Assembly (NCBI GenBank): GCA_040758355.1
Contig: JBFLWF010000003.1
Span: forward strand, 32,001 to 96,000
Reading direction: 5' to 3'
From: Nitrospirota bacterium
GTDB lineage: Bacteria; Nitrospirota; Thermodesulfovibrionia; Thermodesulfovibrionales; Dissulfurispiraceae
Length of the DNA stretch: 64,000 nt
Positions 43,604 through 61,461 of this stretch are shown one piece after another. Both the position numbers and the translations under genes were made by a program. The notes beneath the pieces are model-generated. The model saw only the letters and a list, made by a program, of their open reading frames with translations. It was not told the DNA's origin and did not search any database. Positions within the stretch are counted from its first letter, which is position 1, and each line of letters opens with the position of its first letter.

Positions 43604-43683
43604 ACCATCCTCCCATTTCAAATTCGAAATCCTAATACCTAAATCCTAAACAAACTCAAAACCCTGCTTTTAGAATTTAGAAT

Positions 43684-44028: not shown

Positions 44029-44055
44029 ATCGCTATGACTTTTTTGCATAACGTT
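44029..44055. promoter_or_regulatory. Putative ModE-type operator
   Basis: ATCGCTATG-N9-CATAACGTT immediately before the ModE-like start codon. Confidence 0.55.
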
Positions 44056-44067
44056 GATAATAAAAAA

Positions 44068-44364
44068 TCATTCCCTGGTGCTCGTAGTAATTGTAATCTT
44101 CTGAAGCCAGAATATTCCTTTTAACGGCGACAGCATGCCCTTAACCGTACTTTCTATCAACTGCCTCGCAAAATCTTTTTTTGAAATATCTATCTCTCCT
44201 TTTTCGGTATAAACGTGAAACTCTTCGGAGTCCACGCATACTGTCACACTATTCGGAGATATGCCGAATGAGTTCGCTATCGCACACAGAATGTTGGCTA
44301 TATAATCTTGCATAAAATCGTTCAGAGGGACTACATAACTATTTACCATAAGACTCGTCTTCAA
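44068..44364 (-). CDS. Hypothetical protein (resembles MobB C-terminal extension)
   Basis: Probable TTG start after GGAGG: LKTSLMVNSYVVPLNDFMQDYI..STVKGMLSPLKG. Confidence 0.55.
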   Translation of the reverse strand: MKTSLMVNSYVVPLNDFMQDYIANILCAIANSFGISPNSVTVCVDSEEFHVYTEKGEIDISKKDFARQLIESTVKGMLSPLKGIFWLQKITITTSTRE

Positions 44365-44959
44365 TGGTGTAATATCCTCCGTCTGCACATGGTTTGCACA
44401 AAATCCTTCCATCCCTGTAAACCTCCCTTATGTCCTGAACATATTCTCCGCAACTGTCGCACCTAATTCTCCTTAACGGTCTGCCGGGCATATCCTCGGG
44501 CTTTATGTCCACTTTCACATCCATTATGTCAAAGAGATCATTATCAGACATTATCTTGTATGCCTCTAACTGAGCTTTATATTTATCCTCAATCTCCGGG
44601 AAGTACTCTTTTGCCTTATCCCTTGCATCTTCTTTTGCAATAACCCTTACAGCACTTCCTGTCTTGAGGTTCACAAAGGTAGCAGCCATCTTGCCGTAAT
44701 CCATGAACTTCATCGTCCTGTGACCAAGGCTACACCCTGTTACAGACTGCACCGCATCTGTTGCGCACCTGTCCATCTCCACAAATACAATCAGGCTCTT
44801 TCTGTCCTTGCCTTTAGGCTCTTCTATTCCAATCTTGGATAATCCGAGAATAGACATCTTGACGCCAAGAACCTGTCCGGGACAGAGATGTCCGTGAATC
44901 TTTACAGATTCTGCAAGGAGTCTTTCGAAGTCCGAATCAATTAATTTTGAGCTGCCCAT
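44339..44959 (-). CDS. FmdE-family protein with C-terminal Zn finger
   Basis: HGHLCPGQVLG, CATDAVQSVTGCSLG, CDSCGE..LCKPCA. Confidence 0.92.
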   Translation of the reverse strand: MGSSKLIDSDFERLLAESVKIHGHLCPGQVLGVKMSILGLSKIGIEEPKGKDRKSLIVFVEMDRCATDAVQSVTGCSLGHRTMKFMDYGKMAATFVNLKTGSAVRVIAKEDARDKAKEYFPEIEDKYKAQLEAYKIMSDNDLFDIMDVKVDIKPEDMPGRPLRRIRCDSCGEYVQDIREVYRDGRILCKPCADGGYYTIEDESYGK

Positions 44960-45306
44960 TCTTCTATTTTTTTGTGGATATCCTTCAATGAAAACGGTTT
45001 TTCAAAGCAGGCATCGATTTTCAATGCCTCCATTTCTTCTTTATTCTCCTTATAAAAAGCCGATACCATAATTATCTTGCCGGCAAAACCTGCGCTCCTG
45101 AGCCTCCTGATTATATCAACCCCGCTGAAGGGTTTCATTTTTAAATCCGTAATTACTACGTCAAACTTATCGAAATTTATCAGAGAAACAGCGGCATTAG
45201 GCGAATTTGTGCCAACCACATCATGTCCCTTTTCGGACAGATACTCCAGTAATGACGTTATAATCAGGGGCTCGTCGTCTATTATGAGTATATTTATTTC
45301 ACCCAC
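44941..45306 (-). CDS. Single-domain response regulator
   Basis: ILIIDDE, VITDLKM, EKPF. Confidence 0.9.
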   Translation of the reverse strand: MGEINILIIDDEPLIITSLLEYLSEKGHDVVGTNSPNAAVSLINFDKFDVVITDLKMKPFSGVDIIRRLRSAGFAGKIIMVSAFYKENKEEMEALKIDACFEKPFSLKDIHKKIEEWAAQN

Positions 45307-45431: not shown

Positions 45432-46409
45432 CTAAGCAAATTCAAAAGGATTATGCCCTCTAAAACCCCTTTTAATTAAAATTGCATTATTCATACAAAA
45501 CCCCTCGCACAATCCGCATCCGCTGCATAAAGAGGTATTGAAAGACAATTCCCTGCTATCGCCTGCGGTTTCTATTTTTAACGCGCCTGTAGGACACATG
45601 CCTATGCAAGCAAAGCAGTTGTTGCAGTCTTCGTTTATATCGACGGTATAATAATAATTTTCAAGCAAAGCGGTGTTGTCTCCCTTTTTATAAGATATAA
45701 CCCTGTTCAGCAAATCCCTCTTGATAGGAATTTTTTTTGCTGAATATGACTGTGGCGCCATAACTTCGTCGTTCTCGAAAAACTCGGAGGCATGAAGAAA
45801 TGTCAGATTTTTAATCGCCTTGAAAAATCCCCTGCGGTCGAATGAGATGTCCTGATAATACAACTCTGATCCATCTTCCACAAGGCATATCTTCTCAAAT
45901 ACATTCAAAGAGGTATTTTTAGTAATACTTCCGATTCTTTTCTTCAGGGTATCGACAATGAACCCGTTCCTGCAATCGGCGCATCCCGTAAGATTAATCT
46001 GGAGCCGTCCCTCCAGGAAAACCGAAAGGGCAATAATATGATCTTCCGACAGAAAACCAAAGCAAAGAGTTCTTTCATGTGCCTTTAAATCCGCCCTCGC
46101 ATTGCAGCCGAGTACGGGGGCCGGAACGGAATTGCCAGCTTTTTTTAATCTCGCGATAAGGGAATAAAAATCCGTAGCTTTTGCATCAAAGCATCCCGAA
46201 GGACATACAGATACGCATAACATGCATTCGGAACATGCATCTCTCTTGATGTCAACACCTTCGTCTATTCTGACAGCATTGAACCTGCAATGCTTAATAC
46301 ACTCGCTGCAGGTGCTTTTGTTAAAACGCATCCTCAAACACCTCGATTGGTCTACGGCAATCGCATCTGCTGTGTTCGACATAGTGTCGATTATTTTGCC
46401 CTGCAGCAT
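45432..46409 (-). CDS. Polyferredoxin-like 4Fe-4S protein (arr accessory)
   Basis: Four CxxCxxCxxxC-type motifs at the N- and C-termini, internal RRGFF. Confidence 0.85.
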   Translation of the reverse strand: MLQGKIIDTMSNTADAIAVDQSRCLRMRFNKSTCSECIKHCRFNAVRIDEGVDIKRDACSECMLCVSVCPSGCFDAKATDFYSLIARLKKAGNSVPAPVLGCNARADLKAHERTLCFGFLSEDHIIALSVFLEGRLQINLTGCADCRNGFIVDTLKKRIGSITKNTSLNVFEKICLVEDGSELYYQDISFDRRGFFKAIKNLTFLHASEFFENDEVMAPQSYSAKKIPIKRDLLNRVISYKKGDNTALLENYYYTVDINEDCNNCFACIGMCPTGALKIETAGDSRELSFNTSLCSGCGLCEGFCMNNAILIKRGFRGHNPFEFA

Positions 46410-47077
46410 TAATTTAAAACCCTCTGTGCCTTTTCGCTCATAATTTCATCAGGGATAACAGAGTTCATAATAAAGGCCGAAACACACTCGGCAAGTGCCA
46501 GGTAGAATTCATTGTCAGTGCCATTTTTTATTTTTTCGCAGAAATTATTTATCCATAGGCCGAGAAATGAATTTAGAAATTCCTGCTGCATCTTAATAAA
46601 TTTATGAGCGGTATCAATATCAGATTTTTCCAGTGCCTCTGTCTCTTTAAATACAAGATAATACATAAATTCAAGTTCAACTGCTATATGGTCAGGCAGT
46701 TCCTTAAAATCATCATTTATTGCAAGTCCTGCCTCCCGATAGAGTTCCATTGTCTTAATCGTGGAATCCCCCATAACCTTTCTTTCCTTATCAAGATAAA
46801 TCGAGCCATATGGCGGTGCGATCAGCTCATTTGGTCCTACAAAAAGTTTTGCATAATCAACTAACAGTTCTTCATTTGTATATGTCGCAATTGCTTCTTC
46901 CATCTTTTCTGCAAATACAGAGGCAGAAGAACAGACTCTTTTTAATCCCTCTGCAAGGTTTCTCAGGAGATATTCCTGCACAAAAAGAGATCTATCAGGC
47001 TGATAAAAACATGCAGATAAAAGCCTGTAACAGTCTCCTCTTATTTTTTCATTTAATATCAATTCATCGATGTTCAC
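46409..47077 (-). CDS. arrD: TorD/DmsD-family chaperone (ArrD)
   Basis: YAKLFVGP..APPYGSIY, ELPDHIAVELEFM. GTG start after GAGG. Confidence 0.88.
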   Translation of the reverse strand: MNIDELILNEKIRGDCYRLLSACFYQPDRSLFVQEYLLRNLAEGLKRVCSSASVFAEKMEEAIATYTNEELLVDYAKLFVGPNELIAPPYGSIYLDKERKVMGDSTIKTMELYREAGLAINDDFKELPDHIAVELEFMYYLVFKETEALEKSDIDTAHKFIKMQQEFLNSFLGLWINNFCEKIKNGTDNEFYLALAECVSAFIMNSVIPDEIMSEKAQRVLN

Positions 47078-47112
47078 TTTCACCTCATTTGCTTGGAGTA
47101 AAAAAATTGGTG

Positions 47113-47198
47113 TGCGGGAATGGAGTAATGGAGTGATGGAGTAATGATTTTTTATACCCAACACTCCAATACTCCAACACTCCAATTCTTTACTCCGT
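47113..47198. repeat. Inverted octamer arrays between arrB and arrD
   Basis: (ATGGAGTR)n ... (CAAYACTC)n. Confidence 0.8.
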
Positions 47199-47205
47199 AG
47201 AAGTC

Positions 47206-48003
47206 TTACGCCTTCTTGGCCTCGCCCTTAAAGCTTTTTATATAATATACATTGGGCTGCGTGCCCTTTTCTCCAGGCTTTAAAAGCTCGCCCTTGTTGT
47301 TCTTAAGCTGCACAGCCTTGTGGGCTTTCAGAGCCTTGCTCGGCTCGCTGTTGGGGTCCGAAAGGTCGCCGAATATACGGGCTTTCGCAGGGCAAGATGC
47401 CACACAGTAAGGCTGCTCGCCGTTAAGAACGCGGTGCTCGCAGAACATGCACTTTTCAACTTTGCCTTTCTCTCTGACGCTCGCATAGTCCGAATGCTTA
47501 TACATTGTGCGATGCGGAGGCATGTCACCAGCCTTCTTTGAGACATCAGCGCCCGATGAAGTACAACCGGGTATAACCTCTTTTGTGTCTTTATAAAAAG
47601 GATGGACTTCATCGGTAAAGTCATTAAAACTTATAACGCTGTACTGCACGCCTGCCTTATCAACATCTTCTGAACTATAGGGACATGCCTGCTGGCACCG
47701 ACGGCATCCGATGCACCTCTCCATATTGTGGATTGTCATGCCGTTTTCGTGTTTATGCATCGCCTTTGGAGTTACAGGACATGCCTTAACGCAAGGAGCA
47801 TCTGAGCAGTGGTTGCAGAGAACAGGCATAGGAGTGAACTTCACATCCGGATACTTGCCCTCTGTTTTCATAAAGAAATCGGCCCAGTTGAATCTCTGCC
47901 CCTTCGCCCTGTCCTGAGTGTTGTTCTCTGTCTTGCATGCGATTGCACACGCACCGCAGCCGACACACTTCTGTAAGTCTATAACCATTCCGTATTTAGG
48001 CAT
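47206..48003 (-). CDS. arrB: Respiratory arsenate reductase FeS subunit
   Basis: YGMVIDLQKCVGCGACAIACKTEN, LCNHCSDAPCVKACP, CIGCRRCQQACPY, EKCMFC..PYCVASCP. Confidence 0.9.
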   Translation of the reverse strand: MPKYGMVIDLQKCVGCGACAIACKTENNTQDRAKGQRFNWADFFMKTEGKYPDVKFTPMPVLCNHCSDAPCVKACPVTPKAMHKHENGMTIHNMERCIGCRRCQQACPYSSEDVDKAGVQYSVISFNDFTDEVHPFYKDTKEVIPGCTSSGADVSKKAGDMPPHRTMYKHSDYASVREKGKVEKCMFCEHRVLNGEQPYCVASCPAKARIFGDLSDPNSEPSKALKAHKAVQLKNNKGELLKPGEKGTQPNVYYIKSFKGEAKKA

Positions 48004-48022
48004 CTATCTTTACCTCCTTTCC

Positions 48023-50596
48023 TTAAACCTTCTCTATTCTTACCGCGGTAAAGCCGCCGTTTCTGCAGTTGCTGCCGGTCATACGCTCAACATCAAAAGG
48101 CATGAGGTCATTGTTATTGCCGCCTCTCGGTGTCTTGTTAAATTCTTTGGTAGCAACCTTTCCGTATGCCCAGTGTCCCTGACCATAGCACTTTGAAACA
48201 GTGCCGGGCCTTACACCTTCCCAGAGCTTTGCCTTGACAGTAATGCTGCCTGTTACAGAAGTGAGCTTCACCATGTCTCCTGTCTTGATCCCGAGTTTTT
48301 TGCCGTCCTCGGGATTTATCCTCACGATATCGTCCCAGCTCTCATCGCCAACATCTACCCTCTTGAACTCCTGGAACCATGTGGTGTTCTGGCTTCTTCC
48401 TTCCCTGTTGAGCCTTGACTTGAAGTCAACGAGGATAAACGGATATTTGACAGGGTCGCCCCATATCTTTGGCGACTCATAATGAGGCACAAATACCTCT
48501 TCGCCTTTTGCCGTATACTGGGCTGCCTCTACAATATCATCAATCGTTGTCTTATACTTTTCGGCATGGGCTTTAAGACCCGTCTTCAGTCCTTCACTGT
48601 AAAACTCAAATTTCTTAGTAAGTGTCGGGAAGCCCTTTTCCCAGAGTCCTTTGTATTTATAAGACTCTGAATTATAGATTCCCTTTGCCTTAAAGTCTTC
48701 CCAGCCGTTAAGCTGAGGGCTACCCTTAAGAGGCTCTTTTGGTTTCCATACAGGCATGCTGATGGTTTTTGCTACAATCTCTGCAAAATCCTCAGGCCCG
48801 GTAGGAGTCTTGCCGGTTTCAGGGTCTTTAAATGAATTGAAGTAATTAATCATATTCGGGAAACCCTTTTCGCCAAGCTTTTGAGCGAGCATGTACATTA
48901 TCTCTGTCTCGTCAGCTTTCTCTTCCCAGAGCCTTCCGACAACAGGCTGCTGAATGGAGATATGTGTATGACCATTGCCTTTGTTGTCAATTATCGAGAG
49001 CTTCTGTGTAGCATGATGCGCTGCAGGCAATACTATATCGGCATACATCGCAGCCTCGGCAGGGTTGGTGCCGATATGGACATAAAAGACCTTTTCCATT
49101 GCCCTGTCCCATCTGTCAGCGCCTGTGCATGAGAAGTTGAAGTTTGCCCAATAGCTTATGCAGACTTTGATATCATAAGGGTCTGCATTCAATATGCCTG
49201 TTGCTGTATTATTTGTAATAACAGCAGTGCCTGGTTTGAAATTTCCCTTTTTGTCAGCGTCGGGATTAAGCGAAGGGAACTGCTTGTATCCCCTCTGGTC
49301 GATCTTTTTTTCCTTGCCGTATTTCTTTGCCATGTCATCGAGGAAAGGATCAATGGAGGGCAGTTTTCCTGATGGCGACTTTGGATGATGGGTCAATACG
49401 CCGCCCTCAACATCTATGCAGCCGAGAAGGCCGTTAATAGCATATATTGCCTGAGATGCTGCAGCACCTCTCGGGCTCATAACAGGACCGGGGCCCATCC
49501 ATATCGCACACTGCGGAGCAGCAGCAGCCATTGTCTTTGCAACTTTTACAATCTGAGACTTGGAAATGCCGCAGATTTTTTCAGCCCATTCAGGTGTCCT
49601 GTCCTTGAGTTCAATGTTCCACCATTTTACAAGACCATGTGTGTGCTTTTCTGCAAATGCAGCCTCGTCAACTGTCTTTCCTGTCTTGAACTGGTTCTTG
49701 CCGTCTTTAAAGTCTCCAACGAACTCCTTGTTCCACAAGCCTTCTGTCAGGAGAACATGGGCTATTGCCAGTGCAAGTGCGCCGTCTTCACCTGGCTTTA
49801 CAGGCACCCACATATGAGATTTTGCCCCTATAGCGCTCAATCTCGGGTCAACAGTAATAAGCGTACCTCTATCAATAAGGTCGCCAATTTTATTTATTGT
49901 GTTCGGAACGTTCCTGTTTGAGCTTAACGGGTCGCATCCCCATACTACAAGACATTTCATATTCTGAAGGTTATAATCCCTGTATCCCCAGTAGCCTTCT
50001 GTTGCAAAAGGACCAAATTTCTCGGCCTCTGCACAGATAGCACTGTGTGAGATCGAATTGGGTGAGCCTATTATCTTTGGTAATGTTCCGTAAGCAAGAG
50101 GATATGTCTTTGGTGAATATCTTCCCCTGATGAAGAGAAATTTATGCGGCTCGTTGTTTTTTCTGAGTTCGAGGAGCTTATCAGCAACTATACCCAATGC
50201 CTCATCCCATGAAATGGGAACGAACTTTGGATCTTCTCCTCTGCCCTTTTTGGGGTTTGTCCTTTTCATAGGAACCTTCACCCTGTCTGGGTCGTAAAGC
50301 TCCTGAAGCATAAGGTGTCCTCTCGGACAGCAGTAACCGCCGTTTACCTTTGAAAGCTGGTTTCCGCGAACTTTTACAGCCCTTCCGTTCTGAACAAAAA
50401 ACTCGCAAGGGCACCACTGTGTACAGCCCTGACATGTGGATGGAACCCATTTGCCGGGATCCGTGCTGCCGCTCACCTTTTCGCCTGCAAGCGGCTTGGG
50501 CACCTGTGCAAAGGCATTAAGGGATGGTCCTGTTAATGCCATTGCTGCGCCGGCTGCCACGCCTGCCTTAAGAAAGTCTCTTCTCTTAATCTCCAT
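48023..50596 (-). CDS. arrA: Respiratory arsenate reductase catalytic Mo-bisPGD subunit
   Basis: Tat signal KRRDFLK, TCQGCTQWC, RGRYS and SHSAICAEAEK catalytic-site motifs, KSRLNREGR. Confidence 0.93.
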   Translation of the reverse strand: MEIKRRDFLKAGVAAGAAMALTGPSLNAFAQVPKPLAGEKVSGSTDPGKWVPSTCQGCTQWCPCEFFVQNGRAVKVRGNQLSKVNGGYCCPRGHLMLQELYDPDRVKVPMKRTNPKKGRGEDPKFVPISWDEALGIVADKLLELRKNNEPHKFLFIRGRYSPKTYPLAYGTLPKIIGSPNSISHSAICAEAEKFGPFATEGYWGYRDYNLQNMKCLVVWGCDPLSSNRNVPNTINKIGDLIDRGTLITVDPRLSAIGAKSHMWVPVKPGEDGALALAIAHVLLTEGLWNKEFVGDFKDGKNQFKTGKTVDEAAFAEKHTHGLVKWWNIELKDRTPEWAEKICGISKSQIVKVAKTMAAAAPQCAIWMGPGPVMSPRGAAASQAIYAINGLLGCIDVEGGVLTHHPKSPSGKLPSIDPFLDDMAKKYGKEKKIDQRGYKQFPSLNPDADKKGNFKPGTAVITNNTATGILNADPYDIKVCISYWANFNFSCTGADRWDRAMEKVFYVHIGTNPAEAAMYADIVLPAAHHATQKLSIIDNKGNGHTHISIQQPVVGRLWEEKADETEIMYMLAQKLGEKGFPNMINYFNSFKDPETGKTPTGPEDFAEIVAKTISMPVWKPKEPLKGSPQLNGWEDFKAKGIYNSESYKYKGLWEKGFPTLTKKFEFYSEGLKTGLKAHAEKYKTTIDDIVEAAQYTAKGEEVFVPHYESPKIWGDPVKYPFILVDFKSRLNREGRSQNTTWFQEFKRVDVGDESWDDIVRINPEDGKKLGIKTGDMVKLTSVTGSITVKAKLWEGVRPGTVSKCYGQGHWAYGKVATKEFNKTPRGGNNNDLMPFDVERMTGSNCRNGGFTAVRIEKV

Positions 50597-50744
50597 CTTT
50601 ACCTCCTTTTAGGTATTTAAGATTGAAAAGAAATCAACTGCAAAATTTGCGAAATCCCCTCCTTCTCACCCCCTTCTGTCATGCCTGTTCTAAAGATTAT
50701 CCCACCTCATTTTGTTTGTCAAATGATAATTCATAAAAATGTTT

Positions 50745-50760
50745 ATCAACTTTTATGCCA
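50745..50760 (-). promoter_or_regulatory. sigma54 promoter of arr operon (variant -12)
   Basis: TGGCATAAAAGTTGAT: perfect -24, and -12 TTGA instead of TTGC. Confidence 0.65.
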
Positions 50761-50801
50761 TATGTAACATGTTGAAAACAAAAGGTTTATTCTTATAGAT
50801 G

Positions 50802-50909
50802 TGTTACTAAAAAGAAACAGATATAAATTAGAAATCACGTATCTGCTTCTATTGTCAATAAAAACAAGGTCTTTTCATCCAAAAATCGGAGTGTTACGAT
50901 TTAGTAGCG
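50802..50909. promoter_or_regulatory. Two putative activator sites (TGTTAC-N6-GTAACA-like)
   Basis: TGTTACTAAAAAGAAACA (50802-50819) and TGTTACGATTTAGTAGCG (50892-50909). Confidence 0.7.
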
Positions 50910-50960
50910 ATGACATATTCTTTATGCTCTCAGTTCAAGAAAGGGTTTGTGTATAAAATT

Positions 50961-52700
50961 TCATATTAGCGCCTCCGGTCTGTTTGCAGCAACAACAATG
51001 TTTCTGCCTGTCTCCTTTGCAACATAAAGGGCGTCATCTGCTGCCCGTATAATCTTTTCCGGGGAGTCTCCATCTTCAGGATAACACGCTGCACCAATGC
51101 TTACCGTTATCTTCCCTGACGGCTGTGATTCTGCCCTTGGAAATTTGTTTTTCGCGATACCGCACCTTATCCTTTCGGCTATGGATATTGCCTCATCCTT
51201 TCCTGTTTCAGGAAGCAACATGATGAATTCTTCTCCTCCGTACCTGCTTACTGTGTCTGTTTCCCTGATATGCTCGTTCAACATATCAGCCAGCATCTTC
51301 AGCAATATGTCTCCTTGTGGATGTCCGTTTGTATCGTTGTAATGCTTGAAGTGGTCAATATCAATCATAATCAGGCCGAAATGTTTGACGTACCTCTGTG
51401 CCCTGTGTATTTCGGATTCCAGAAGTTTCAGAAATGCCCTCCGGTTTTTCAGTCCTGTAAGCCCATCTGTCTCCGAAAGCTCAAGGGTCTTTTCGTAGAG
51501 CTTTGCATTTGATACGGCAAGGCTCGCTGCATCGAGCAGACGCATGCATGCATCGAGGTCGGGTCTTGGCTCAAGCTTAGACCGCCTCGTAACATCCATA
51601 ACAAATATTCCGGCAGGTGTAAACATATCGCAGTTCATGCATGCCTTTAATTTTTCCAGAGTGTCTGTCAGAATCCTGCCGTGGCAGTAAGTACTTGAAG
51701 TGTACCAGCATCTCCTGTCATCAGAACCATGGGCAGGACATGACGAGTCCGGAGGACAGTGAAAATATTCATAACATTTTGTTGTAAATGCTGCCCTGAT
51801 AGGCAGGACTGTTATCTCCTTTGCGTCTTTAAGAAGAATCTTTATTACAACATCTTCATATTCGGAGCTTATGACAGATGTATCGAGCCACCTTGCCTCG
51901 CAACTTAAAAATGTATCTGTAAATATATTTTTGCCCGAAAGCGGGATAGCAATATCAGATTTATTATGAACCAGAGACACTTTGTTTTTATCCAGACGGA
52001 AGCACTCAATATTAGAACTGCCGGAAAATGCTGATAGTTCTTCTTTTGCAATCTCTATGACATCGTCCATTACAATAGAAGAACGCAGTTTCTCCGAAAG
52101 GAGGTAAAGACGTCTTATCTCATCCTGTTTTTTATACAGCCTGTCCGAGAGGTATGCGACAAAATAGGCGGTGAGAATCAATGTGCTTGCAAAAACACCT
52201 CCATATGCCGCTATCACGGAAAGGTCCGCAAAAAGCACAGGCTCATTCTTGAGTATGGCAAAATGGGGCAGGATGCCTACGTGTTTGAGCCACATAACCG
52301 CTGCAGGAAGGACTATTGCAGCAACAGCAAACCTGAAAGTCCATTTTATCGGCAGGATGATGCCGCTTATTACAATGTGGAAGATGTAATAATATAAAAA
52401 CGGGCTGTCGCATCCTCCTGAAAAATAAACAGCAGCAGTAAGAACAATGAAGTCAAGGCTTATCTGTGCAATTGCGTTCTTTATGAGGTCTTCGGATGGA
52501 GATTTCAGCCTCTGCTGAAAATATGCATTGTACACAGTAGTAAAGCCCAGTATCAGATATACTGGTATCAATGGAAAAGTCAGACCTGCTATCTCCCTCA
52601 CCACGTGAGTTATGACAAGCACGCCGACGCAGCCTGCCCATCTGAGCCTTACAAGCCAGAGAAGCTTATCTTTCATTTCTGACTGTTCGATGGTAATCAT
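50961..52700 (-). CDS. Membrane diguanylate cyclase with Cys-rich (two-CW-like) insert
   Basis: Several N-terminal TMs, CYEYFHC..CPA..RCW..TYCHG..CMNCD, SRYGGEEF. Confidence 0.9.
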   Translation of the reverse strand: MITIEQSEMKDKLLWLVRLRWAGCVGVLVITHVVREIAGLTFPLIPVYLILGFTTVYNAYFQQRLKSPSEDLIKNAIAQISLDFIVLTAAVYFSGGCDSPFLYYYIFHIVISGIILPIKWTFRFAVAAIVLPAAVMWLKHVGILPHFAILKNEPVLFADLSVIAAYGGVFASTLILTAYFVAYLSDRLYKKQDEIRRLYLLSEKLRSSIVMDDVIEIAKEELSAFSGSSNIECFRLDKNKVSLVHNKSDIAIPLSGKNIFTDTFLSCEARWLDTSVISSEYEDVVIKILLKDAKEITVLPIRAAFTTKCYEYFHCPPDSSCPAHGSDDRRCWYTSSTYCHGRILTDTLEKLKACMNCDMFTPAGIFVMDVTRRSKLEPRPDLDACMRLLDAASLAVSNAKLYEKTLELSETDGLTGLKNRRAFLKLLESEIHRAQRYVKHFGLIMIDIDHFKHYNDTNGHPQGDILLKMLADMLNEHIRETDTVSRYGGEEFIMLLPETGKDEAISIAERIRCGIAKNKFPRAESQPSGKITVSIGAACYPEDGDSPEKIIRAADDALYVAKETGRNIVVAANRPEALI

Positions 52701-52779
52701 TGTGTTCTCTCTTTAATAATATCAAGACAGCTTGATGCCCTCTCCGGGATTTCCCTTTTCACGGCCATAGCGCCATATT

Positions 52780-54384
52780 TTATTCTGTTTCCCTTGTCTT
52801 AAACCCTGCCGTGGAGTTTCTTAATTCCTCTGCTATCTTTGCTAATACATCGACCTCCTGCATTACATCATCTGCCATCTTCTCCATGTCTTTTGCAATG
52901 GCAGATGTCTTTTCTATGTTTCCTGCCACCTCTTCCGATGCAGCCGACTGCTCATCCACTGCAGTTGCTATTTGTGTTATCTGGTCGCGGACTTTCTGAA
53001 CAGACTCCACAATGGTATCCAGAACATTCTTCAAGTTCTTCACATGACCCACTGCCTTAGTTATACCCTTTGTGGAGGAAGACATAGACTTAGCCGTCTG
53101 CTCGGATTCAGCCTGCACTGCTCCTATCTTTTCCGAAATCTCTGTTGTTGCCTTTATTGTCCTCTCAGCTAATTTTCTTACCTCATCAGCAACAACCGCA
53201 AATCCTCTTCCCTGCTCACCTGCCCTTGCTGCCTCGATTGCTGCATTTAAGGCAAGGAGATTTGTCTGGTCTGCTATGTCTTTGATTACGGTTACTATTC
53301 CTCCAATCTCAACCACCCTGCTGTTCAGCCTTCCTACCATCCTTGAAAGCTCTGCCGTAGAAGTATTGACTTCATTTATCGTTTCAACGGTTGTGTCTGT
53401 TATCTGTTTGCCGCTTTCTGCTATTTCCATTGCCTCTGACGATGTATCCGATGCCACAGATGCATTTTTCGCTATATCGGTGATTGTCTGGCTCATCTCT
53501 TCTGCTGCTGTTGCTATCTGGTGGGCCTGGGAGGATTGATTTTTTGCTCCTTCCGATGTCTTTTCTGACCTCGCCCCCAATACATCCACTGTGGACACCA
53601 CTTTGTTTGCCGATGCGAGTATGCCGTTTATCATGCTGTTGAAGGACTGAATCATTCTGTTCATGTCGTGCGCGAGGATGCCTATTTCATCTTTACTGTG
53701 ATAATCTATTGTGGCTCTCAAATCTCCTTCTGACAACTGCCTGACCTTTTCTATCAGATGAGTCAGTGGCCTGAGGGCAATTGTAACGAGAAAGAATATG
53801 GCTCCGGTTACTGACAGTATGCCCATTAATCCGAGTCCGAAATAGAGGTTGCGGGATGATTTAATTGTGGCAAAAGAACGTGTCAGCGGTATCTTTATGC
53901 TTATGGCCCCGAGAACAGTCCCCTCTTTTACATTGTGGCAGGATAAGCAGTTTTTACCCATGTAATTAGATTTTGCGATATAGGGGGAAATGCTGCGGAG
54001 GTATTCTCCTTCAAGGAAAACCTTCTCTGTGCCCTTATCTAAAACCTCCTTTTCCACGGCATCTTTTGGGTATTCCTCGGCTTTACCCCTTCCATAATCT
54101 TTATCGAGGTTTTCCGACCTTATTATACGGACATCTGCGATATTGGACATCTGCTCCAGAAACTGACCCTTCGATTCCTTGATTGTTCCGTTCAGCATCA
54201 TGGTGGTAAGGGCATTCAGAACTGTATCTCTGTATCCTGTGAGGGTCGTGTTCTTTGCCTCATCGATGACAATGCTCTTTGTCCTGCCTGTCGTTACAAA
54301 GATTGTGACTATAATACCTATAGCGACCATCACTGTAATCGGCACCACTACCTTGTTTTTCAGAGATACATCTTTTAGATTCAT
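52780..54384 (-). CDS. Methyl-accepting chemotaxis protein with periplasmic c-heme motif
   Basis: CLSCH in periplasmic domain, [42 protein letters not shown]. Confidence 0.94.
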
Positions 54385-54488
54385 ATTCTCCCCTCCGTTA
54401 ACTAAATTACGCAAATATTACTATTGCGTATAACAGATTGTAAAGGCTTTGAAGTACACCTGCTGTCATGACCTTGCGTAATTTGAGT

Positions 54489-55201
54489 TTAATCACTACC
54501 TTTGCCCGCCGGGCATATGATGGCCACATCAGTGCCCTTCCCTTTCTTGCTCTCTATTGTTATTCTGCCACCGTGCCTTTCCACTATACCCCTTGCTATG
54601 GAAAGACCCAGACCTGTGCTGGTTTTGTGCTGGGCGCTGAAAAACGGGTCGAAGACCTTATGTATCTCTTCCCCCGAAATCCCCTTTCCTGTGTCTGTAA
54701 AGACGATTCGCAGCAGGGCTTTTTCATCACCGCTCTCTTATATTCACCGGTGTGCGCAGCGATGCTTTTTGTTATCTCATCATTGATCCTTGAATAACTC
54801 GATTCCAACTCTGTCAAACGTCTCCGCCCTTCGCCCAGCCTTTTTTCAAGGAATAAAGAGTTAATGGAGATCAGCTTTGAGTAATACCCCATATACTCGT
54901 GTTTTATTTTATCGGCATCTTCAGGATGTGTTTTTTTTAGATTGTTTAAGTTATCAAAAACCCTGAGGGAATGCCCATCGGATTGTATGACATATTTATG
55001 ATCAAGTGTTAAAATGCCGCTCTGGATGGCCCTATTGAACTCTTTGATATCGCTGTCTATCCGGTTCAGCAACTGTATTGTTTCAATTATCTGCTTCAAC
55101 TGATAATTGTGAAAATAAAAAATCCAGCCAAAAGATGAAAAAACAAAAACGGCAATTAACAATATGGGCAGGATGATCTTGTTTTTTTCCGAAAGATCCA
55201 T
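54489..55201 (-). pseudogene. Internally deleted sensor histidine kinase
   Basis: N-terminal TM/periplasmic part fused out of frame near 54735 to an HATPase tail (FTDTGKGI..VFDPFFS..STGLGLSIARGIVERHGGRITIES..). HAMP and HisKA are absent. Confidence 0.8.
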
Positions 55202-55205
55202 GCCT

Positions 55206-55691
55206 TTACCGACCTCTCCTGACAGGAATAAAGCCCTGAGCCTTCACTATCTCCTGTCCCTCCGTAATCAAAAAGAGGTCTAAGTAATTCTTTATCTTTT
55301 TATTCTCTTTCATGTATACGAGGTTCAACTCTCTCCTGATGGGATATGTACCGTTAAGCACATTCTCTTTTGTTGCTGCAACTCCGTTTAAGGCAAGAAT
55401 TTTTATAGGCATTCCTTTTTCGATCAGGGACATAGCCGTACCTACCGATACATACCCTATGGCTCCCGGCGCACCACCTACCAGCGTTACTCCCTCGAGA
55501 TTAGATCCTACTTCGTATGTTTCTTTTGCAATATAGCCGTTAATTCCCTTCCGGGTACTGCAAGAATGTTCTAACCCTGTATAGTTTTCAAATAGCTCCA
55601 GCGTTGATCTTCCGGGCTGCTTCGACACCAGACTGATCGGCTGATCCCACGTGGTTATTAATATAACGGGAAAGAATATCTTCTGAGCCAT
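55206..55691 (-). pseudogene. N-terminally truncated PstS-like binding protein
   Basis: Only the C-terminal half is present (GAIGYVSVG..LNGVAATKENVLNGTYPIRRELNL..EGQEIV). No signal peptide. Confidence 0.7.
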
Positions 55692-55713
55692 GTCCCCTGT
55701 TTCTTATCTTTAT

Positions 55714-56718
55714 TTAAGATCGTATAAATCGTTGAGGGTCTTTGTATTCGTGGCATTTCACGCAATCCTTCTTTGCCTGAGCCTCTGTAACCCTCCATGA
55801 ATGGGGCTTGTGGCAGTCAACACACTTCATGCTCATGCCCCTTATATGCAGCTCGTGCTTGCCTACATAGAGCTGATCGCTATGACATCGTTTAAGACAG
55901 TCACCCCAATCGGGCCGCACCTTTTTATGAGGCTTATGACACTCATAGCAGTAGAACTGCATGGGTGCATCTTTAGGCACATTTATCTTTATTGCCTTTT
56001 TTATAAGCTCCGGTGAAGGCTGGAAATATTTGGTATCTATCGTCCCTTCCTCGATCAGCTTTTTCCTTATTGATTCTTCTCCATGGCAGAACAGACACTT
56101 CTCCCTGTCGGGCCTCAAATGGGGAGTGCGGTCGGTATGGCAGTTGATGCAGGCAAGTTTTTCCATGCCTGTACCGTGAACCTCTCTGCCGGTATGGCAA
56201 TTAACACAGAATCTCTCCTCGGGAAGGAAATTATGAACCACGTAGCCGTGGCATTTTGCACACTCTATCTGTTCCATAAATACATGCTTTGCATGATACC
56301 TTGAACGGTTCACTACAGGTGCATCTGGATATCTTTTGTCCTTTTCCCAGTGGCATTGGATGCATATCTTCCATGCTACGATAATCTGTCCGTGTCTTGG
56401 TTCAACCATTTTCTGACCCATGAATACAAACCTGTACAACTGCACCACCTGTTCCTTCTTCGTTGAATGATGACACTCGTGGCATGTAACTTCTTTGTGC
56501 ACGCTCTTTGCCCATGCCTCGTTTGCATAATCATGGACGTGGCACAGGGCGCAGGCATTCGGGTCATGCTCAAAATAGTCGTTGATCTTATACCCTGTAA
56601 AACCGACGCCGATAACAAAAAGTAAAACAAAAAGGGAAATAATTATCCTTGCCTTGCGGGATAGCTTCTCTGAATACCATACAACAAGCCTGTCAAACAA
56701 TTTAAATGGATTGAGCAC
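55714..56718 (-). CDS. Membrane-anchored multiheme cytochrome c (NapC/NirT-like N-terminus)
   Basis: One N-terminal TM, 10 CxxCH plus one CxxxCH (CLKRCH), ..PNACALCH..WAKSVHKEVTCHECH. Confidence 0.92.
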   Translation of the reverse strand: MLNPFKLFDRLVVWYSEKLSRKARIIISLFVLLFVIGVGFTGYKINDYFEHDPNACALCHVHDYANEAWAKSVHKEVTCHECHHSTKKEQVVQLYRFVFMGQKMVEPRHGQIIVAWKICIQCHWEKDKRYPDAPVVNRSRYHAKHVFMEQIECAKCHGYVVHNFLPEERFCVNCHTGREVHGTGMEKLACINCHTDRTPHLRPDREKCLFCHGEESIRKKLIEEGTIDTKYFQPSPELIKKAIKINVPKDAPMQFYCYECHKPHKKVRPDWGDCLKRCHSDQLYVGKHELHIRGMSMKCVDCHKPHSWRVTEAQAKKDCVKCHEYKDPQRFIRS

Positions 56719-56738
56719 TTTTCACCTTATTTAATTTT

Positions 56739-56754
56739 AGCAATTTATATGCCA
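56739..56754 (-). promoter_or_regulatory. sigma54 -24/-12 promoter of cytochrome gene
   Basis: TGGCATATAAATTGCT, consensus match. Confidence 0.88.
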
Positions 56755-56795
56755 TTTATAAATAGATGAATTAAAAGGGTTTTAAATCAAGGGGA

Positions 56796-56905
56796 GATTA
56801 CGAAAAAGAAACAATAAAGTGTGTGATTTTGTTGTCTGTCTTTGTGTTTTCCTTATAAAAATCGTCTTTCTGGCAGGAGGCGAGGTTTGTTACTTTTTTG
56901 TAACA
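56796..56905. promoter_or_regulatory. Two putative activator sites (TGTTAC-N6-GTAACA)
   Basis: GATTACGAAAAAGAAACA (56796-56813) and TGTTACTTTTTTGTAACA with perfect arms (56888-56905). Confidence 0.75.
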
Positions 56906-56957
56906 ACTATTCAGTCATGTTCGTATTCTGCATGCTCATGTTTTGAACATGGTTATC

Positions 56958-58295
56958 TCACTCTATTGCATAGGCATTCATCTTCTCCCAGAGCGTCTTT
57001 CTGCTGATTCCGAGCATTTCCGCAGCCCGGGTTTTGTTGCCCTTTGTGGTTTTTAATATTCTGATTATATGCTCTTTTTCTGCCTCTGCTGCCACATCGG
57101 AAAGGGAAAAATGTCTTTTGTCATCACTTTTTTCGAATATAAAAGAAGGAAGGTCATCTTTCTGAATTATATCGGTAGTGGCAAGGGTTGCGCATCTCTC
57201 CACAATATTTTCGAGCTCCCTTACATTCCCTGGATAGTCATACCTGAGAAGGGCGTTCATTGCATCAACCGAGAAGCGGATATTTCTCGAAAGCTTGTTT
57301 GCGCATTTGCTTAAAAAGAAATCGATAAGATTAGGCATATCTTCCTTGCGCTCCCTTAAGGGCGGAAGTGTTATAGGTATCACATTGAGGCGGTAATAAA
57401 GGTCTTCCCTGAAATTGCCTTTCTTTACCTCATCTTCGAGATTCCTGTTTGTTGCTGCAATTATCCTTACATCCACATTCAAGGTATCGGTGCCGCCTAC
57501 CCTCTCAAATGTCCTTTCCTGAATCACTCTTAAAAGTTTTGACTGGGTTGATAGGGGCAGATTGCCTATCTCGTCAAGGAAGATGGTGCCGCCATTGGCA
57601 AGTTCAAACCTCCCCGCTTTCCTTTTTATCGCACCGGTGAACGCACCCTTTTCATGGCCGAACATCTCGCTCTCTATCAGACCCTCGGGCAGTGCTGCAC
57701 AGTTTACCTTTATCAGGGGTTTGTCCTTCCGCTTGCTCTGATAATGAATTGTGGTCGCTATAAGTTCCTTTCCTGTACCGCTTTCTCCGAGTATTAAGAC
57801 TGTCGAATCAGACCCGGCAACCTTTTCGACCAATGAGAAGACCTTCTTCATCTCCTCACTTTCGCCGATTATATTAGGGAAACAGTAGCATCTGCTCAGG
57901 TCTTTCTTGAGCCTTATATTTTCATCCTTAAGCCTCTTTACATCCAGGGCCCTTTCTATCAGCAAAAGGAATTCGTCCAGAGAAAACGGTTTTGTTATGT
58001 AGTCGAATGCACCGAGTTTCATCGCATCTACAGCATCTTTTATTGTGCCAAAGGCAGTCATCACAATTACCTGCGCCTCATTTGTCCTTGTAATTTGCCG
58101 TAGTATGTCGATACCGTCAATATCAGGGAGCCTTACATCGGTAACCAGCACATCGAATGAATTATCTCTCAGGAAATTTAGGGCCTCCATGCCTGTTTCA
58201 AAAGATATGACCTCATATCCTGCCGACTTAAGGGCGTCATCGAGAGTAACCCTCATCAATTTTTCGTCTTCTATTAATATAACCGTTTCATTCAT
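56958..58295 (-). CDS. sigma54-dependent response regulator (ArrR/AioR-like)
   Basis: REC, GESGTGKE, EMFGHEKGAFTGA, HTH ending GISRKTLWEK as in AioR/ArxR-type activators. Confidence 0.93.
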   Translation of the reverse strand: MNETVILIEDEKLMRVTLDDALKSAGYEVISFETGMEALNFLRDNSFDVLVTDVRLPDIDGIDILRQITRTNEAQVIVMTAFGTIKDAVDAMKLGAFDYITKPFSLDEFLLLIERALDVKRLKDENIRLKKDLSRCYCFPNIIGESEEMKKVFSLVEKVAGSDSTVLILGESGTGKELIATTIHYQSKRKDKPLIKVNCAALPEGLIESEMFGHEKGAFTGAIKRKAGRFELANGGTIFLDEIGNLPLSTQSKLLRVIQERTFERVGGTDTLNVDVRIIAATNRNLEDEVKKGNFREDLYYRLNVIPITLPPLRERKEDMPNLIDFFLSKCANKLSRNIRFSVDAMNALLRYDYPGNVRELENIVERCATLATTDIIQKDDLPSFIFEKSDDKRHFSLSDVAAEAEKEHIIRILKTTKGNKTRAAEMLGISRKTLWEKMNAYAIE

Positions 58296-59764
58296 ATGCT
58301 TGGGTCTACTGGAAAGGTCAGTATAAACTTACTGCCCTTCCCAACCTCGCTTTCAACGGAGATTTCTCCATTATAATTTCTGACTATGTCATAACTCAAC
58401 CACAAGCCGAGCCCCGTTCCTTCTCCAGGAGGTTTCGTTGTAAAAAACGGGTCGAATATCTTGCCTAAATTTTCTTGAGAAATGCCCTCGCCTGTATCTA
58501 TAACTTCCACTTTTATTTTCGAATCCTCCTTATATCCCCTGACAGCCAAATATCCCTCATACTTCATGGCATGGATTGCATTTATAAAGAGATTTAAAAT
58601 CACCTGATGAAAATCGTGGGGGTCAAAGATAATAAAAAGTCCGTCCTCCACCTCGTTGGCAAATTGGATATTGCCTTTCTTGAGTTTATATCCCACAAAT
58701 GTGTAGACGCCGTTTATAGAATCTTTGATATTAATGCTGATGGGCGTGTGGTCTCCTTTCCTGGACATCCACAAAAGCTTGCTTACGGTATTTTCTATCC
58801 GGTCAAGCCCCTCTTTTATCAGATCCAGATATTTTCCCCTTAATTCAGGATTATTGCCGTTGAGCTTCAAGATCTGCACGCAGTTAAATACTCCTCCGAG
58901 AGGATTGTTTATCTCATGGGCAACGCCTGCGGCAAGTATGCCTACGGATGCAAGCTTTTCTGATTGTACCAGCTTTTCATGGGTTTTTCTGAGTTCTTCG
59001 TTTGCCTGCTTTATCCTCTCTATCATGTTATTAAACCTCTCGCCGAGGACGGCAAGCTCATCATGTCCCTTCACCTCAACTTTGACATCGAGATAGTCGC
59101 CCCCTGTTTTTTCCATGGTAGCGGCAAGCTGTGTTATGGGGCTTATAAAGCGGTTGCTCAAGAGAAGTATGACGCCGAACCCTGCAATAATAAGGAACAA
59201 TGTGAGAATGATAATCTTTTTAATGGAGGCAACAATCTCCTTTTCGACCTTTTCGAGGGATATTGCGAACTTCAATGTTCCCCAACGCTTTTTCCCTATA
59301 GAAAGCGGGACCCCGAAATCGAGGGCATTATGTCCGCTGTGCGAAAAACTGTGTATTACGGCATCATTTGCTTGTAATGCCTTTACAGTTGAGGGGTCTG
59401 AATATATCTTTCCGTACTCCGCAATATTGTTGTGAGATATTATCTTTCCCTCCTCATCCAGAATAGCTATGTAAATCAAATCCACATCGCGCCTGTTGAA
59501 TATCTCCATTATGTAATTATCGAGCAAGCCGCCTTCCTCCACCAATCCAAGCCTTTCATAAATGAGGTCGTTGATTATCGGTATGGCGAGGGTCTCTCCA
59601 AGCAATCGTCCCTGCCTTTCGACCTCGGTGTATAGTATATTCTTTCCTCTCTGGACAGCCATATAACCTATTATCCCCATGAGAAGTATAATGGCTACTG
59701 TCGTAATCAAAATGAATTTAGACCTCAGACTTAATCTTGAGAAAAAAGCAGTAATCGTATTCAT
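58292..59764 (-). CDS. Sensor histidine kinase (ArrS/AioS-like)
   Basis: Two TMs, HAMP, AGVAHEINNPLGG, FDPFFTTKPPGEGTGLGL. Confidence 0.93.
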   Translation of the reverse strand: MNTITAFFSRLSLRSKFILITTVAIILLMGIIGYMAVQRGKNILYTEVERQGRLLGETLAIPIINDLIYERLGLVEEGGLLDNYIMEIFNRRDVDLIYIAILDEEGKIISHNNIAEYGKIYSDPSTVKALQANDAVIHSFSHSGHNALDFGVPLSIGKKRWGTLKFAISLEKVEKEIVASIKKIIILTLFLIIAGFGVILLLSNRFISPITQLAATMEKTGGDYLDVKVEVKGHDELAVLGERFNNMIERIKQANEELRKTHEKLVQSEKLASVGILAAGVAHEINNPLGGVFNCVQILKLNGNNPELRGKYLDLIKEGLDRIENTVSKLLWMSRKGDHTPISINIKDSINGVYTFVGYKLKKGNIQFANEVEDGLFIIFDPHDFHQVILNLFINAIHAMKYEGYLAVRGYKEDSKIKVEVIDTGEGISQENLGKIFDPFFTTKPPGEGTGLGLWLSYDIVRNYNGEISVESEVGKGSKFILTFPVDPSI

Positions 59765-61461
59765 AACCTTATCTTTGGATGGCAGCCCTTACCGCATGTC
59801 TGGGGCACTGCATTAATCTTCGCCCGTATATCAGCATAATCTTTATCCGACGCCTCCATGAAACCATTTCTGAAGTCATCATCGAGCCTTTTTAATATCT
59901 TCTGATGGTTTGAGCTGTTGGGATCCAGATCAAGCAATGCCTTTTTTATATTCTCTATCATGGCAAAAGGCGTACCCGGGCCTACGACAAGGGGGCCTGT
60001 TGGGATGTCAGGAGATTCGGCTATTACCTCGATGCCGAGTTTCATATATTTCCTTGCCACCGAATCGCGCACAGCACCCGCATCGTACTGCCCCTTCAAA
60101 ACCGCCTTGACAACCGAGTCATGATAATCGAAATTAGCATAACCGCCCAGCTCATTAAGGTGAATTCCTGAGTTTGCAAGGAGATAGCGGGGCATTAAAT
60201 TTCCTGATGTTGATTTGGAAGCCGAAAAAGCCATGATCTTTCCTTTTAGTCCATTGGTATCGTTTACAGATGAATCCCTTCTCTTTATTATTACGCTCTT
60301 ATAGGAGGCATTACCGTCGATTCCCCTCGGTTTAAGTATGCATATGGCCCCGTATTTTGCGCGTGCTTCGAGGTATGTCAGAGGGCCGAGAAGCGCAACC
60401 TCAACTTCTCCGCGGCCAAGGGCCTCCACAGTGTCTTCATAATTTTTCTTTATAACAAGCTCATATGCGTAGGGCGTCTTTTCGGAGAGGTAGTCAAGGA
60501 GCGGCTGGTATTTTTCGTATAATATTCTCGGGTTGTCCCTCGGTATTACGCCGAAAGAAACCATTTTTTTACCATTCGTCTTTTTAGCCACCATAACATC
60601 ATTTTTAATAGAGCGCTCCATTTCCCTTATTGAATCATAAGCACTGTCCGATATCTGCACAAAACCGTCTATCATCATGTCGTTAAGTATTGCGGCCCCC
60701 TTTGCTGTTTTATGCATGTTCAAGAAGGCATCCCTTATTTTTTTCTTGAGATTCTCATCGATGTCTTTAGTTACTACAACAGGAGGGATTCCATACGGCG
60801 GCGATCTTTTTATGACCTTAGTCTGTTTTGCATAGGGCGAGCCCTTCTTTACCATATATTCATAGACAATGCTTTCGACAGCAGCGCCGTCTACAACCTT
60901 TTTAGCTACCAGCTCCACTGATTTATTATGGCTGTAGCTGTACATAACCCTCTTAAAAAATTTCTCGGGGGTAAATCCCATTGTCTTCAACAGATGTGTA
61001 GGATACAGTTTGCCTGTGTTGGATTTGGGATCGGTAAAGGCGAAAAACTTACCTTTCAACTCGGGAAAGGACTGAACCGGACTATCCTTATGGACAATTA
61101 TGTATGAATGATATGATGCCTTCCCGTTTACGCTTGGGGCAACGAGGATCTCGACGCCGAATTTCTCGCGGTTTTTAACATACGGCGCAGAACAAATAAA
61201 TGCAACTTTAACTTCCCCTCTTTCGAGCATTGTGTCCATCTCGTCATATGTCCTTCTGTGAACCATCTGTACAGGCTGTTTTATCTGCTCGCCTATGTAA
61301 TCGATTATTTCCTGATAATACTTGACAGCGTCGACAGGCGTAATCATCGATGATACGCCGATTTTGATTGTATTGTCCTGCTGCGATAAAGAGTCGTGAG
61401 GGAGGCAAAAGACCGAAACAAAAACAAACAAAAGAAGTAAAATTAAATTGAAGCGTCTCAT
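59761..61461 (-). CDS. Tandem two-domain PhnD/AioX-like periplasmic binding protein
   Basis: Signal peptide. Domain 1: AFICSAPY, FAFTDPKSNTG, YSHNKSV. Domain 2: ALLGPLTY, AFSASKSTSG, YHDSVV. C-terminal TCGKGCH. Confidence 0.88.
   Translation of the reverse strand: MRRFNLILLLLFVFVSVFCLPHDSLSQQDNTIKIGVSSMITPVDAVKYYQEIIDYIGEQIKQPVQMVHRRTYDEMDTMLERGEVKVAFICSAPYVKNREKFGVEILVAPSVNGKASYHSYIIVHKDSPVQSFPELKGKFFAFTDPKSNTGKLYPTHLLKTMGFTPEKFFKRVMYSYSHNKSVELVAKKVVDGAAVESIVYEYMVKKGSPYAKQTKVIKRSPPYGIPPVVVTKDIDENLKKKIRDAFLNMHKTAKGAAILNDMMIDGFVQISDSAYDSIREMERSIKNDVMVAKKTNGKKMVSFGVIPRDNPRILYEKYQPLLDYLSEKTPYAYELVIKKNYEDTVEALGRGEVEVALLGPLTYLEARAKYGAICILKPRGIDGNASYKSVIIKRRDSSVNDTNGLKGKIMAFSASKSTSGNLMPRYLLANSGIHLNELGGYANFDYHDSVVKAVLKGQYDAGAVRDSVARKYMKLGIEVIAESPDIPTGPLVVGPGTPFAMIENIKKALLDLDPNSSNHQKILKRLDDDFRNGFMEASDKDYADIRAKINAVPQTCGKGCHPKIRL

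Follow-up and report, generated by a model that had tools for sequence, protein, structure and literature searches.

How electrons reach the arsenate reductase ArrAB where no arrC gene accompanies it is a question that bears on which bacteria mobilise arsenic. In the literature searched, only Shewanella has a known route, through CymA, by which arrC-less enzymes take electrons from the quinone pool, and the accessible text of PMC2500031 allows that solutions other than CymA are possible. The question is raised anew by the window analysed here, a stretch of 64,000 nucleotides of Nitrospirota DNA in which an arr locus without arrC carries, next to arrR, a gene for a c-type cytochrome with eleven heme motifs.

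The arr locus and its 11-heme-motif cytochrome

On the minus strand the locus runs arrX-arrS-arrR, cytochrome, PstS-like gene, kinase, chemoreceptor, diguanylate cyclase, arrA-arrB-arrD and a ferredoxin-like gene that we take to be arrE-like (Table 1). Its ArrA carries the RGRY active-site motif and not GRGWG, at a score below the NCBIfam cut-off, and by this motif distinction (PMC13685797) an Arx identity of the molybdoenzyme was rejected. No NrfD/ArrC-family gene was found within 10 kb of arrA in any of 42 arrA genomes (ArrA match of at least 58% identity, six of the 42 being partial; another seven matches, at 42-49% and in longer ORFs, were excluded as unclassified), the nearest lying ~14.6 kb away, so that in these Nitrospirota an NrfD gene never stands beside arrA. 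None of this genome's five NrfD-family genes is on the window contig, and the cytochrome, with one helix and no PF03916 match, is not of the polytopic ArrC (NrfD/PsrC) type.

Table 1. Coordinates of the arr locus features in the window
Feature	Position	Strand	Basis or remark
Ferredoxin-like gene	45432..46409	minus	domain match
arrD, TorD-like chaperone	46409..47185	minus	domain/family match
arrB, iron-sulfur subunit	47206..48003	minus	NF041715 best, 249 bits, cut-off 450
arrA: TAT motif, 4Fe-4S motif, RGRY at aa 157	48023..50596	minus	best family NF041714 at 1053 bits (cut-off 1600)
arrA's own Arr-type sigma54 promoter	50746..50908	minus	pattern and promoter alignment
Membrane diguanylate cyclase (GGDEF)	50961..52700	minus	domain match
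Methyl-accepting chemotaxis protein with one CxxCH	52780..54414	minus	domain match
Sensor histidine kinase pseudogene, without residues 159-344 of 424, frame change	54492..55201	minus	versus sister species
PstS-like binding-protein pseudogene, first 140 of 289 residues missing	55206..55691	minus	versus sister species
11-heme-motif cytochrome c, arr-linked copy	55714..56718	minus	334 aa, GTG start; 328 homologues
C-terminal arm, hemes 5-11	55717..56223	minus	motifs; weak fold matches, chain-type multihemes only
CxxxCH motif in C-terminal arm	55882-55899	minus	motif count
NrfH/NapC-like domain, hemes 1-4, aa 46-165	56224..56583	minus	profile and fold matches
K87-x5-Q93, candidate quinol-site lysine and candidate heme-1 distal glutamine	56440..56460	minus	register inferred across 8-residue deletion
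Predicted membrane anchor helix, ~aa 24-45	56584..56649	minus	hydropathy; helix 21-51 in structure model
Sigma54 -24/-12 element TGGCA-N6-TTGC	56740..56754	minus	pattern and promoter alignment
Second conserved box GTTTC-N6-GTAA, candidate activator site	56798..56812	minus	pattern and promoter alignment
Palindrome TGTTAC-N6-GTAACA, candidate ArrR site	56888..56905		single copy in genome
Sigma54 response regulator (ArrR-like)	56958..58295	minus	domain/family match
Sensor kinase (ArrS-like)	58292..59764	minus	domain match
ArrX-like binding protein, two PhnD-type domains	59761..61461	minus	Tyr72/Cys90 spaced as AioX Tyr88/Cys106

The slot between arrR and arrA (50961-55691 in the window) holds varied chemotaxis and c-di-GMP genes here and in L021, L022, L036, L038 and L040, some of them preceded by a second promoter of Arr type, which hints at motility control linked to arsenate; as the slot after arrR is filled by such varied signalling genes elsewhere, position alone is no sign of electron transfer. 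The PstS-like and histidine kinase genes (54492-55691) have deletions in this genome and are whole in L001 and L021. The ArrX-like protein (59761-61461) has two binding domains and 566 aa in loci of the window type, and is single-domain, at ~285 aa, in loci of the second cytochrome family described below. FmdE-like, ModE-like and molybdopterin-binding genes (42470-45306 in the window) follow arrE in most loci of the window type, and a small tatA-like ORF was seen in the sequence upstream of arrA in L031, L035, L037, L044 and L056.

The 334 residues of the cytochrome contain ten CxxCH motifs (aa 56, 79, 119, 153, 171, 190, 208, 257, 299 and 319) and one CxxxCH (aa 274-279), which account for all 22 of its cysteines, and eleven heme motifs were counted in 118 of the 120 homologues listed. 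Ten further histidines are conserved in 159-161 of 161 family sequences and two methionines are invariant, so distal heme ligands are sufficient in number. The single hydrophobic stretch (top 19-residue hydropathy windows begin at aa 22-27) gives the protein the one N-terminal anchor characteristic of NapC/NirT/NrfH proteins, whose tetraheme size it exceeds; heme attachment and topology are predicted. The initial annotation had thus read the motif count, the one transmembrane helix and the excess of hemes over tetraheme CymA and NapC correctly. Named homologues are Nitrospirota, many of them Thermodesulfovibrionales, and a cultured relative, Dissulfurispira thermophila, has a protein of the ordinary type (P0256). 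A paralogue in the same genome has CxxCH where the window cytochrome has CxxxCH, and CxxxCH recurs there in 20 of the 161 family sequences, scattered over the tree; the position is therefore a real motif position that is not specific to arr, and CxxxCH was rejected as an arr-specific mark.

Residues 26-165 appear weakly but consistently NrfH-like by sequence and by model. TIGR03153 matches aa 27-162 at E 1.4e-9, far under its family cut-off, the profile of the 11-heme family matches NrfH (PDB 2J7A) at E 1.6e-9, and the top VIA-align row for the model is 2j7a_C (Z 4.3, rmsd 5.0, 121 aligned, model residues 26-165); weak as each is, they agree with the NapC/NrfH-like start proposed earlier. PF03264 gave no match in the window cytochrome at E<=0.01, its curated cut-off not being reached, and scored 21.6 bits on the paralogue against a cut-off of 24.1. 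Searched against the PDB with Foldseek, the whole model had no match and the C-terminal arm had none at E<=0.001; single-sequence searches of the PDB gave nothing significant. The four VIA-align rows for the arm are all multiheme cytochromes (STC, the MtrA complex, NrfB and HAO; Z 2.0-3.3). Both models were built without hemes, at a mean pLDDT of 76 (whole) and 75 (C-terminal).

The NrfH encoded in the same genome served to transfer the positions of NrfH M49, K82 and D89 to the window cytochrome. This revealed that the methionine of CxxCHxM and Asp89 are replaced by His62 and Gln93, and that the loop after heme 2 carries an 8-residue deletion, on whose placement there the lysine register, anchored on the helix end, depends. 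In this register K87-x5-Q93 has the spacing of ImcH K173/Q179 and of CymA K91/D97, the latter positions being taken from primers in the accessible text. According to the accessible parts of the sources, ImcH K173 overlaps NrfH K82 and Q179 is a predicted heme-1 ligand (10.1101/2023.05.03.539133), and CymA K91 is required for quinol binding and for growth on arsenate (PMC2762525). Of 161 family sequences, 110 combine His62, Lys or Arg87 and Gln93, whereas 48 have M/(I,V,L)/L; the three positions, all at heme 1, switch jointly in 158 of 161, and tandem 11-heme pairs often combine one H/K/Q with one M/I/L member. The 110-sequence subclade, which includes the window copy, would be the quinol-oxidising one, and the other is possibly wire-only. 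What survives of the earlier proposal of a fused quinol dehydrogenase and heme wire replacing ArrC is therefore a NapC-derived head, a multiheme arm and a plausible quinol site; the replacement of ArrC is not supported.

In an alignment of 12 promoters from ten genomes, picked for carrying the pattern, all three elements ahead of the cytochrome line up, and by this comparison its promoter is judged to be of a conserved Arr type. Base composition predicts 0.25 copies of the palindrome for the 2.77-Mb genome, which has one; the box-plus-sigma54 pattern is present twice, ahead of the cytochrome and ahead of arrA. The palindrome-plus-sigma54 pattern was found in 10 of 40 arr loci versus none of 98 non-arr loci of the 11-heme family, these patterns having been derived from the same sequences in which they were counted. 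With candidate activator sites and a sigma54 element ahead of it, the gene appears to belong to the Arr regulon. In the complete genome G007, however, the same promoter runs directly into the PstS-like gene, similarity stopping 21 bp before the cytochrome start; the arr-type sites and sigma54 element of the initial annotation are thus confirmed, and the promoter is not specific to the cytochrome. The gene lies 5,117 bp and four genes from arrA and so does not adjoin arrAB under one promoter. Scans for sigma70 promoters and terminators gave nothing above shuffles, and the RNA holder listing for 47200-57000 had no entry.

Paralogues, distribution and origin

The second copy in the same genome, on contig C11, is 76.5% identical to the window cytochrome. 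It lies 40 bp behind hemL, has no Arr promoter, and is followed by an anchored tetraheme cytochrome, a TAT-type 4Fe-4S protein homologous to ArrB (NF041715, 150 bits), an NrfD-family gene and a TorD-like gene. This hemL / 11-heme / tetraheme / FeS / NrfD / TorD-like operon is conserved and holds no Mo subunit (G000:C11:28425-33987, L062); what often comes after it is either another tetraheme-FeS-DsrP-like unit or a cluster of Rieske/cytochrome b genes. Just past rpoC (G000:C42:300-2463, L063) lies a third paralogue, distant at 34% and with ten CxxCH motifs plus one CxxxCH, together with a NapC-headed gene for eight hemes.

At E<=1e-20 the family was matched in 163 of 301 class genomes, and it was found in 83 of 251 phylum genomes. 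Among the 130 class genomes with a listed match below 1e-60, 29 also have arrA and 101 have no arrA match. Gene context was taken from 160 loci, the best 80 of 224 genome matches plus the best 80 of 191 metagenome matches, with some contigs entering twice. FeS and NrfD genes lie directly downstream in 96 of these best-match loci, in 13 part of the tetraheme-FeS-NrfD unit reaches a contig end (after the tetraheme or the FeS gene), 27 are too short and 23 show other contexts, from which it follows that the 11-heme gene can stand without that operon. The one remaining locus, L064, is beside arr, and its copy is the same 95% identical copy as that of L001 and not an independent case. The initial annotation had called the cytochrome dedicated to Arr, and had named in advance homologues occurring mostly without arr as the observation that would speak against it; this is the distribution found (101 of 130 genomes, 1 of 160 best-match loci beside arr), and it refutes a dedicated, obligatory donor as a rule for the family. 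Of the proposed replacement of ArrC, the absence of arrC near arrA is what was confirmed.

No ORF with at least four heme motifs was found in 28 of the 40 other arr loci, several of which have <3 kb on one side. L001 carries a window-type copy, L026 has two c7-type genes on the opposite strand, and in the other ten (L027, L028, L032, L049, L050, L052, L053, L055, L057 and L058) a different 11-heme gene lies directly upstream of arrA. In L052 that gene is broken by stops, and a 45% homologue of the window family also occurs after arrD. The proteins of this second family are NapC-headed, 450-480 aa long and carry 11 hemes; the family is homologous to that of the window (profile probability 99.1, E 8e-19, 261 columns), passes PF03264 at 40-57 bits, keeps CxxCHxM in 117 of 120 sequences and has K-x5-Q at the NrfH distance in 91 of 120. 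It occurs in 34 of 301 class genomes, ahead of arrA on four or five ArrA branches, and also next to PhsA-like Mo enzymes, in many cases accompanied by an NrfD module. The 15 such loci that were fetched (L254-L268) contain long operons of the order FeS-NrfD-8-heme-11-heme-FeS-Mo subunit-TorD, in which the PhsA-like Mo enzyme scores under every NCBIfam cut-off, and some are beside ArrS/ArrR-like or ars-like genes. The second family fits the idea of an ArrC replacement better than the window gene does.

Only four genomes have both families. The window family is present in 29 of the 42 arrA genomes, and among the 13 without it, nine carry the second family immediately ahead of arrA. One or the other occurs in 38 of 42 arrA genomes versus 122 of 259 genomes without arrA, counts that are confounded by kinship. 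At the cut-offs used, neither was found in four arrA genomes, namely G080 (98% complete), G132 (99%), G231 (88%) and G113 (91%).

Within a genus of five species, the arr-linked copy occurs only in this genome (G000) and in G032, whose ArrA proteins are 64% identical. G007 and G044, the latter a member of the same genus, have ArrA proteins 92% identical to those of the window and of G032, respectively, and neither of these relatives has the arr-linked copy. It is therefore found with two different ArrAB alleles, each of which is also found without it, and as it does not track the allele, co-evolution with ArrA was rejected. The arrAB genes (47206-50596 in the window) are mosaic in the genus, with ArrA 64% identical to the sister species and flanking genes 85-95%. 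A tree built from 114 of the 161 distinct sequences joins the two arr-linked copies with support of 0.999 and places the ordinary copies of their own family as sister group to the pair (0.907), so that the duplicate would be older than the genus or would derive from a relative that was not sampled. The simpler account is a gain in the G000/G032 line, on a tree read without a rooted species tree, and G007 may have lost the copy cleanly. The window cytochrome is intact, with a dN/dS of 0.11 versus the sister species (one pair), while the two genes downstream of it are broken. Twenty-six positions distinguish the two arr-linked copies from ordinary family copies, so specialisation is possible.

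Electron supply to ArrAB

Taken together, these observations lead us to propose, tentatively and with a little less than even confidence, that the window gene is a second copy of a phylum-wide 11-heme-motif cytochrome with a predicted anchor, placed behind an Arr-type promoter, which oxidises menaquinol for periplasmic reductases and adds to the electron supply of ArrAB under arsenate. ArrX, ArrS and ArrR would turn on the cytochrome and arrA promoters; menaquinol would be oxidised at heme 1 by the membrane, with K87 and Q93 playing the roles of ImcH K173 and Q179; and electrons would pass through hemes 2-11 to a putative delivery point at the Fe-S clusters of ArrB. Induction with the arr regulon and transfer to ArrB are what we infer here. 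The family would act like a shared CymA-type hub, the ordinary hemL copy likely being the default donor in most relatives with arrAB and without arrC, and the window copy likely an optional extra in two species, not an obligatory ArrAB partner. The retained K87/Q93, the NrfH-like head, the Arr promoter, the intact gene and the lack of a nearby NrfD gene argue for the window copy as a candidate donor. The four arrA genomes with neither family count against a general donor, and the missing PF03264 match and a register drawn across an 8-residue deletion count against a quinol donor.

The usual position of the family ahead of a tetraheme-FeS-NrfD unit with its own likely quinol site (109 of 160 best-match loci) also weighs against our proposal, a wire role fitting it too. 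The protein could then be only the heme wire of a Cbc4-like complex in which NrfD oxidises the quinol, with the arr-linked copy replacing or supplementing the ordinary one under arsenate and linking the complex to ArrB. That reading gains from the FeS and NrfD genes directly downstream in 96 best-match loci, with 13 more cut at contig ends, from the second family, which often has an NrfD module on one side and the FeS and Mo subunit genes of a PhsA-like enzyme on the other, from the hydrophobic residue in place of K87 in one subclade (48 of 161), and from the homology of the FeS partner to ArrB. We nevertheless think it unlikely for the window copy, which keeps K87/Q93; the downstream operon is missing in 23 of the best-match loci, and tandem pairs mix both subclades, suggesting two roles. 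Similarly improbable, in our estimate, is that the copy has no role in electron flow to ArrAB, being part of a signalling cassette (PstS-like protein, kinase, chemoreceptor and diguanylate cyclase) or having landed behind an existing promoter. The G007 promoter leading straight to the PstS-like gene, the distance to arrA, the independence of the copy from the ArrAB allele and the unrelated contexts of other second copies of the family are all consistent with such a passenger, but the cytochrome has stayed intact under purifying selection in a genome where two adjoining cassette genes decayed, and a homologous family lies directly before arrA on several ArrA branches. The dedicated, obligatory donor of the initial annotation, replacing ArrC in the Arr complex, we consider very unlikely: its Arr-type promoter, its place between arrR and arrA in two species, the absence of arrC and the 26 distinguishing positions fit that view, but most family genomes show no arrA match, a single best-match locus is beside arr, a multiheme ORF is missing from 28 of the 40 other arr loci, and G007 (ArrA 92%, complete) and G044 (same genus) do without the copy.

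Beyond the added electron supply proposed for the window, a broader reading is possible that we hold as rather speculative. Nitrospirota may meet the missing-ArrC problem through a superfamily of 11-heme NapC-headed cytochromes, two homologous and largely mutually exclusive families of which would serve as quinol-to-periplasm donors for ArrAB and PhsA-like molybdoenzymes. They would have been recruited to arr clusters repeatedly, once or twice in the case of the window family and, for the family of 450-480 aa, on four or five branches of ArrA, with the window at an early stage of recruitment. The missing-ArrC question becomes testable with two candidates for the donor, one for a quinol-site residue and one for an ArrR binding site.

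Comparison with known systems

Geobacter OR-1, Desulfuromonas WB3 and Anaeromyxobacter PSR-1 also have arr clusters, and published work on these may describe cytochrome genes. The literature searched, with subscription papers and supplements outside it, gave no account of the 11-heme family or of an 11-heme NapC-type gene at arrA; neither is mentioned in PMC4319506 or in the accessible parts of PMC8235581, PMC13284237, PMC11492766, PMC6896113 and PMC12481199, and the supplements of PMC11492766 list cytochrome clusters that may include 11-heme homologues. Already known, from the accessible portions of the sources cited here, are CymA feeding ArrAB, ImcH and TorC/DorC as extended NapC proteins, and Cbc4 and Nhc as cytochrome-FeS-NrfD complexes; as extended NapC donors and a NapC-type donor to ArrAB are thus known in principle, this part of the proposal is less novel.

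The usual operon of the family, with its anchored tetraheme cytochrome, 4Fe-4S protein and NrfD-family subunit and no Mo subunit, resembles Cbc4 (CbcSTU) of Geobacter and NhcABCD as described in the accessible text (10.1101/2025.04.14.648717; PMC8076601), and the operon of the C11 paralogue has this composition, CbcS, CbcT and CbcU being compared by description only. Unlike Cbc4 and Nhc, it also includes one or two 11-heme cytochromes ahead of these genes and, often, a TorD-like gene after them, and the arr-linked copy has none of the Cbc4-type neighbours. Like TorC/DorC, as partly described, the window cytochrome joins a NapC domain to an extra heme domain as a candidate donor to a periplasmic Mo enzyme, whereas TorC/DorC has five hemes, by its NCBIfam name, and its gene is part of the reductase operon. 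Among solved structures, the best match to aa 26-165 is NrfH of Desulfovibrio vulgaris (PDB 2J7A chain C), and the window protein differs from it in having CxxCHxH and Gln, not CxxCHxM and Asp89, a loop shorter by eight residues and seven more hemes. ImcH of Geobacter sulfurreducens, which was compared by description, similarly has a NapC-like head extended by hemes, a CxxxCH motif and K-x5-Q at heme 1, the last a putative feature of the window cytochrome, and, unlike the window cytochrome, has three membrane helices and seven hemes and serves extracellular electron transfer (accessible text of PMC4251993 and 10.1101/2023.05.03.539133). Closest in proposed function is CymA of Shewanella sp. 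ANA-3, a NapC/NirT tetraheme cytochrome put forward as the quinol-to-ArrAB link where arrC is absent (PMC2762525, PMC2500031; accessible text). Both are membrane-anchored NapC-type cytochromes with a lysine and a heme-1 neighbour six residues on, the window protein by prediction in both respects, and CymA is common to several reductases; CymA, however, has four hemes and Asp97, and the window cytochrome has 11 motifs and a Gln and appears to be an extra copy placed in the arr regulon.
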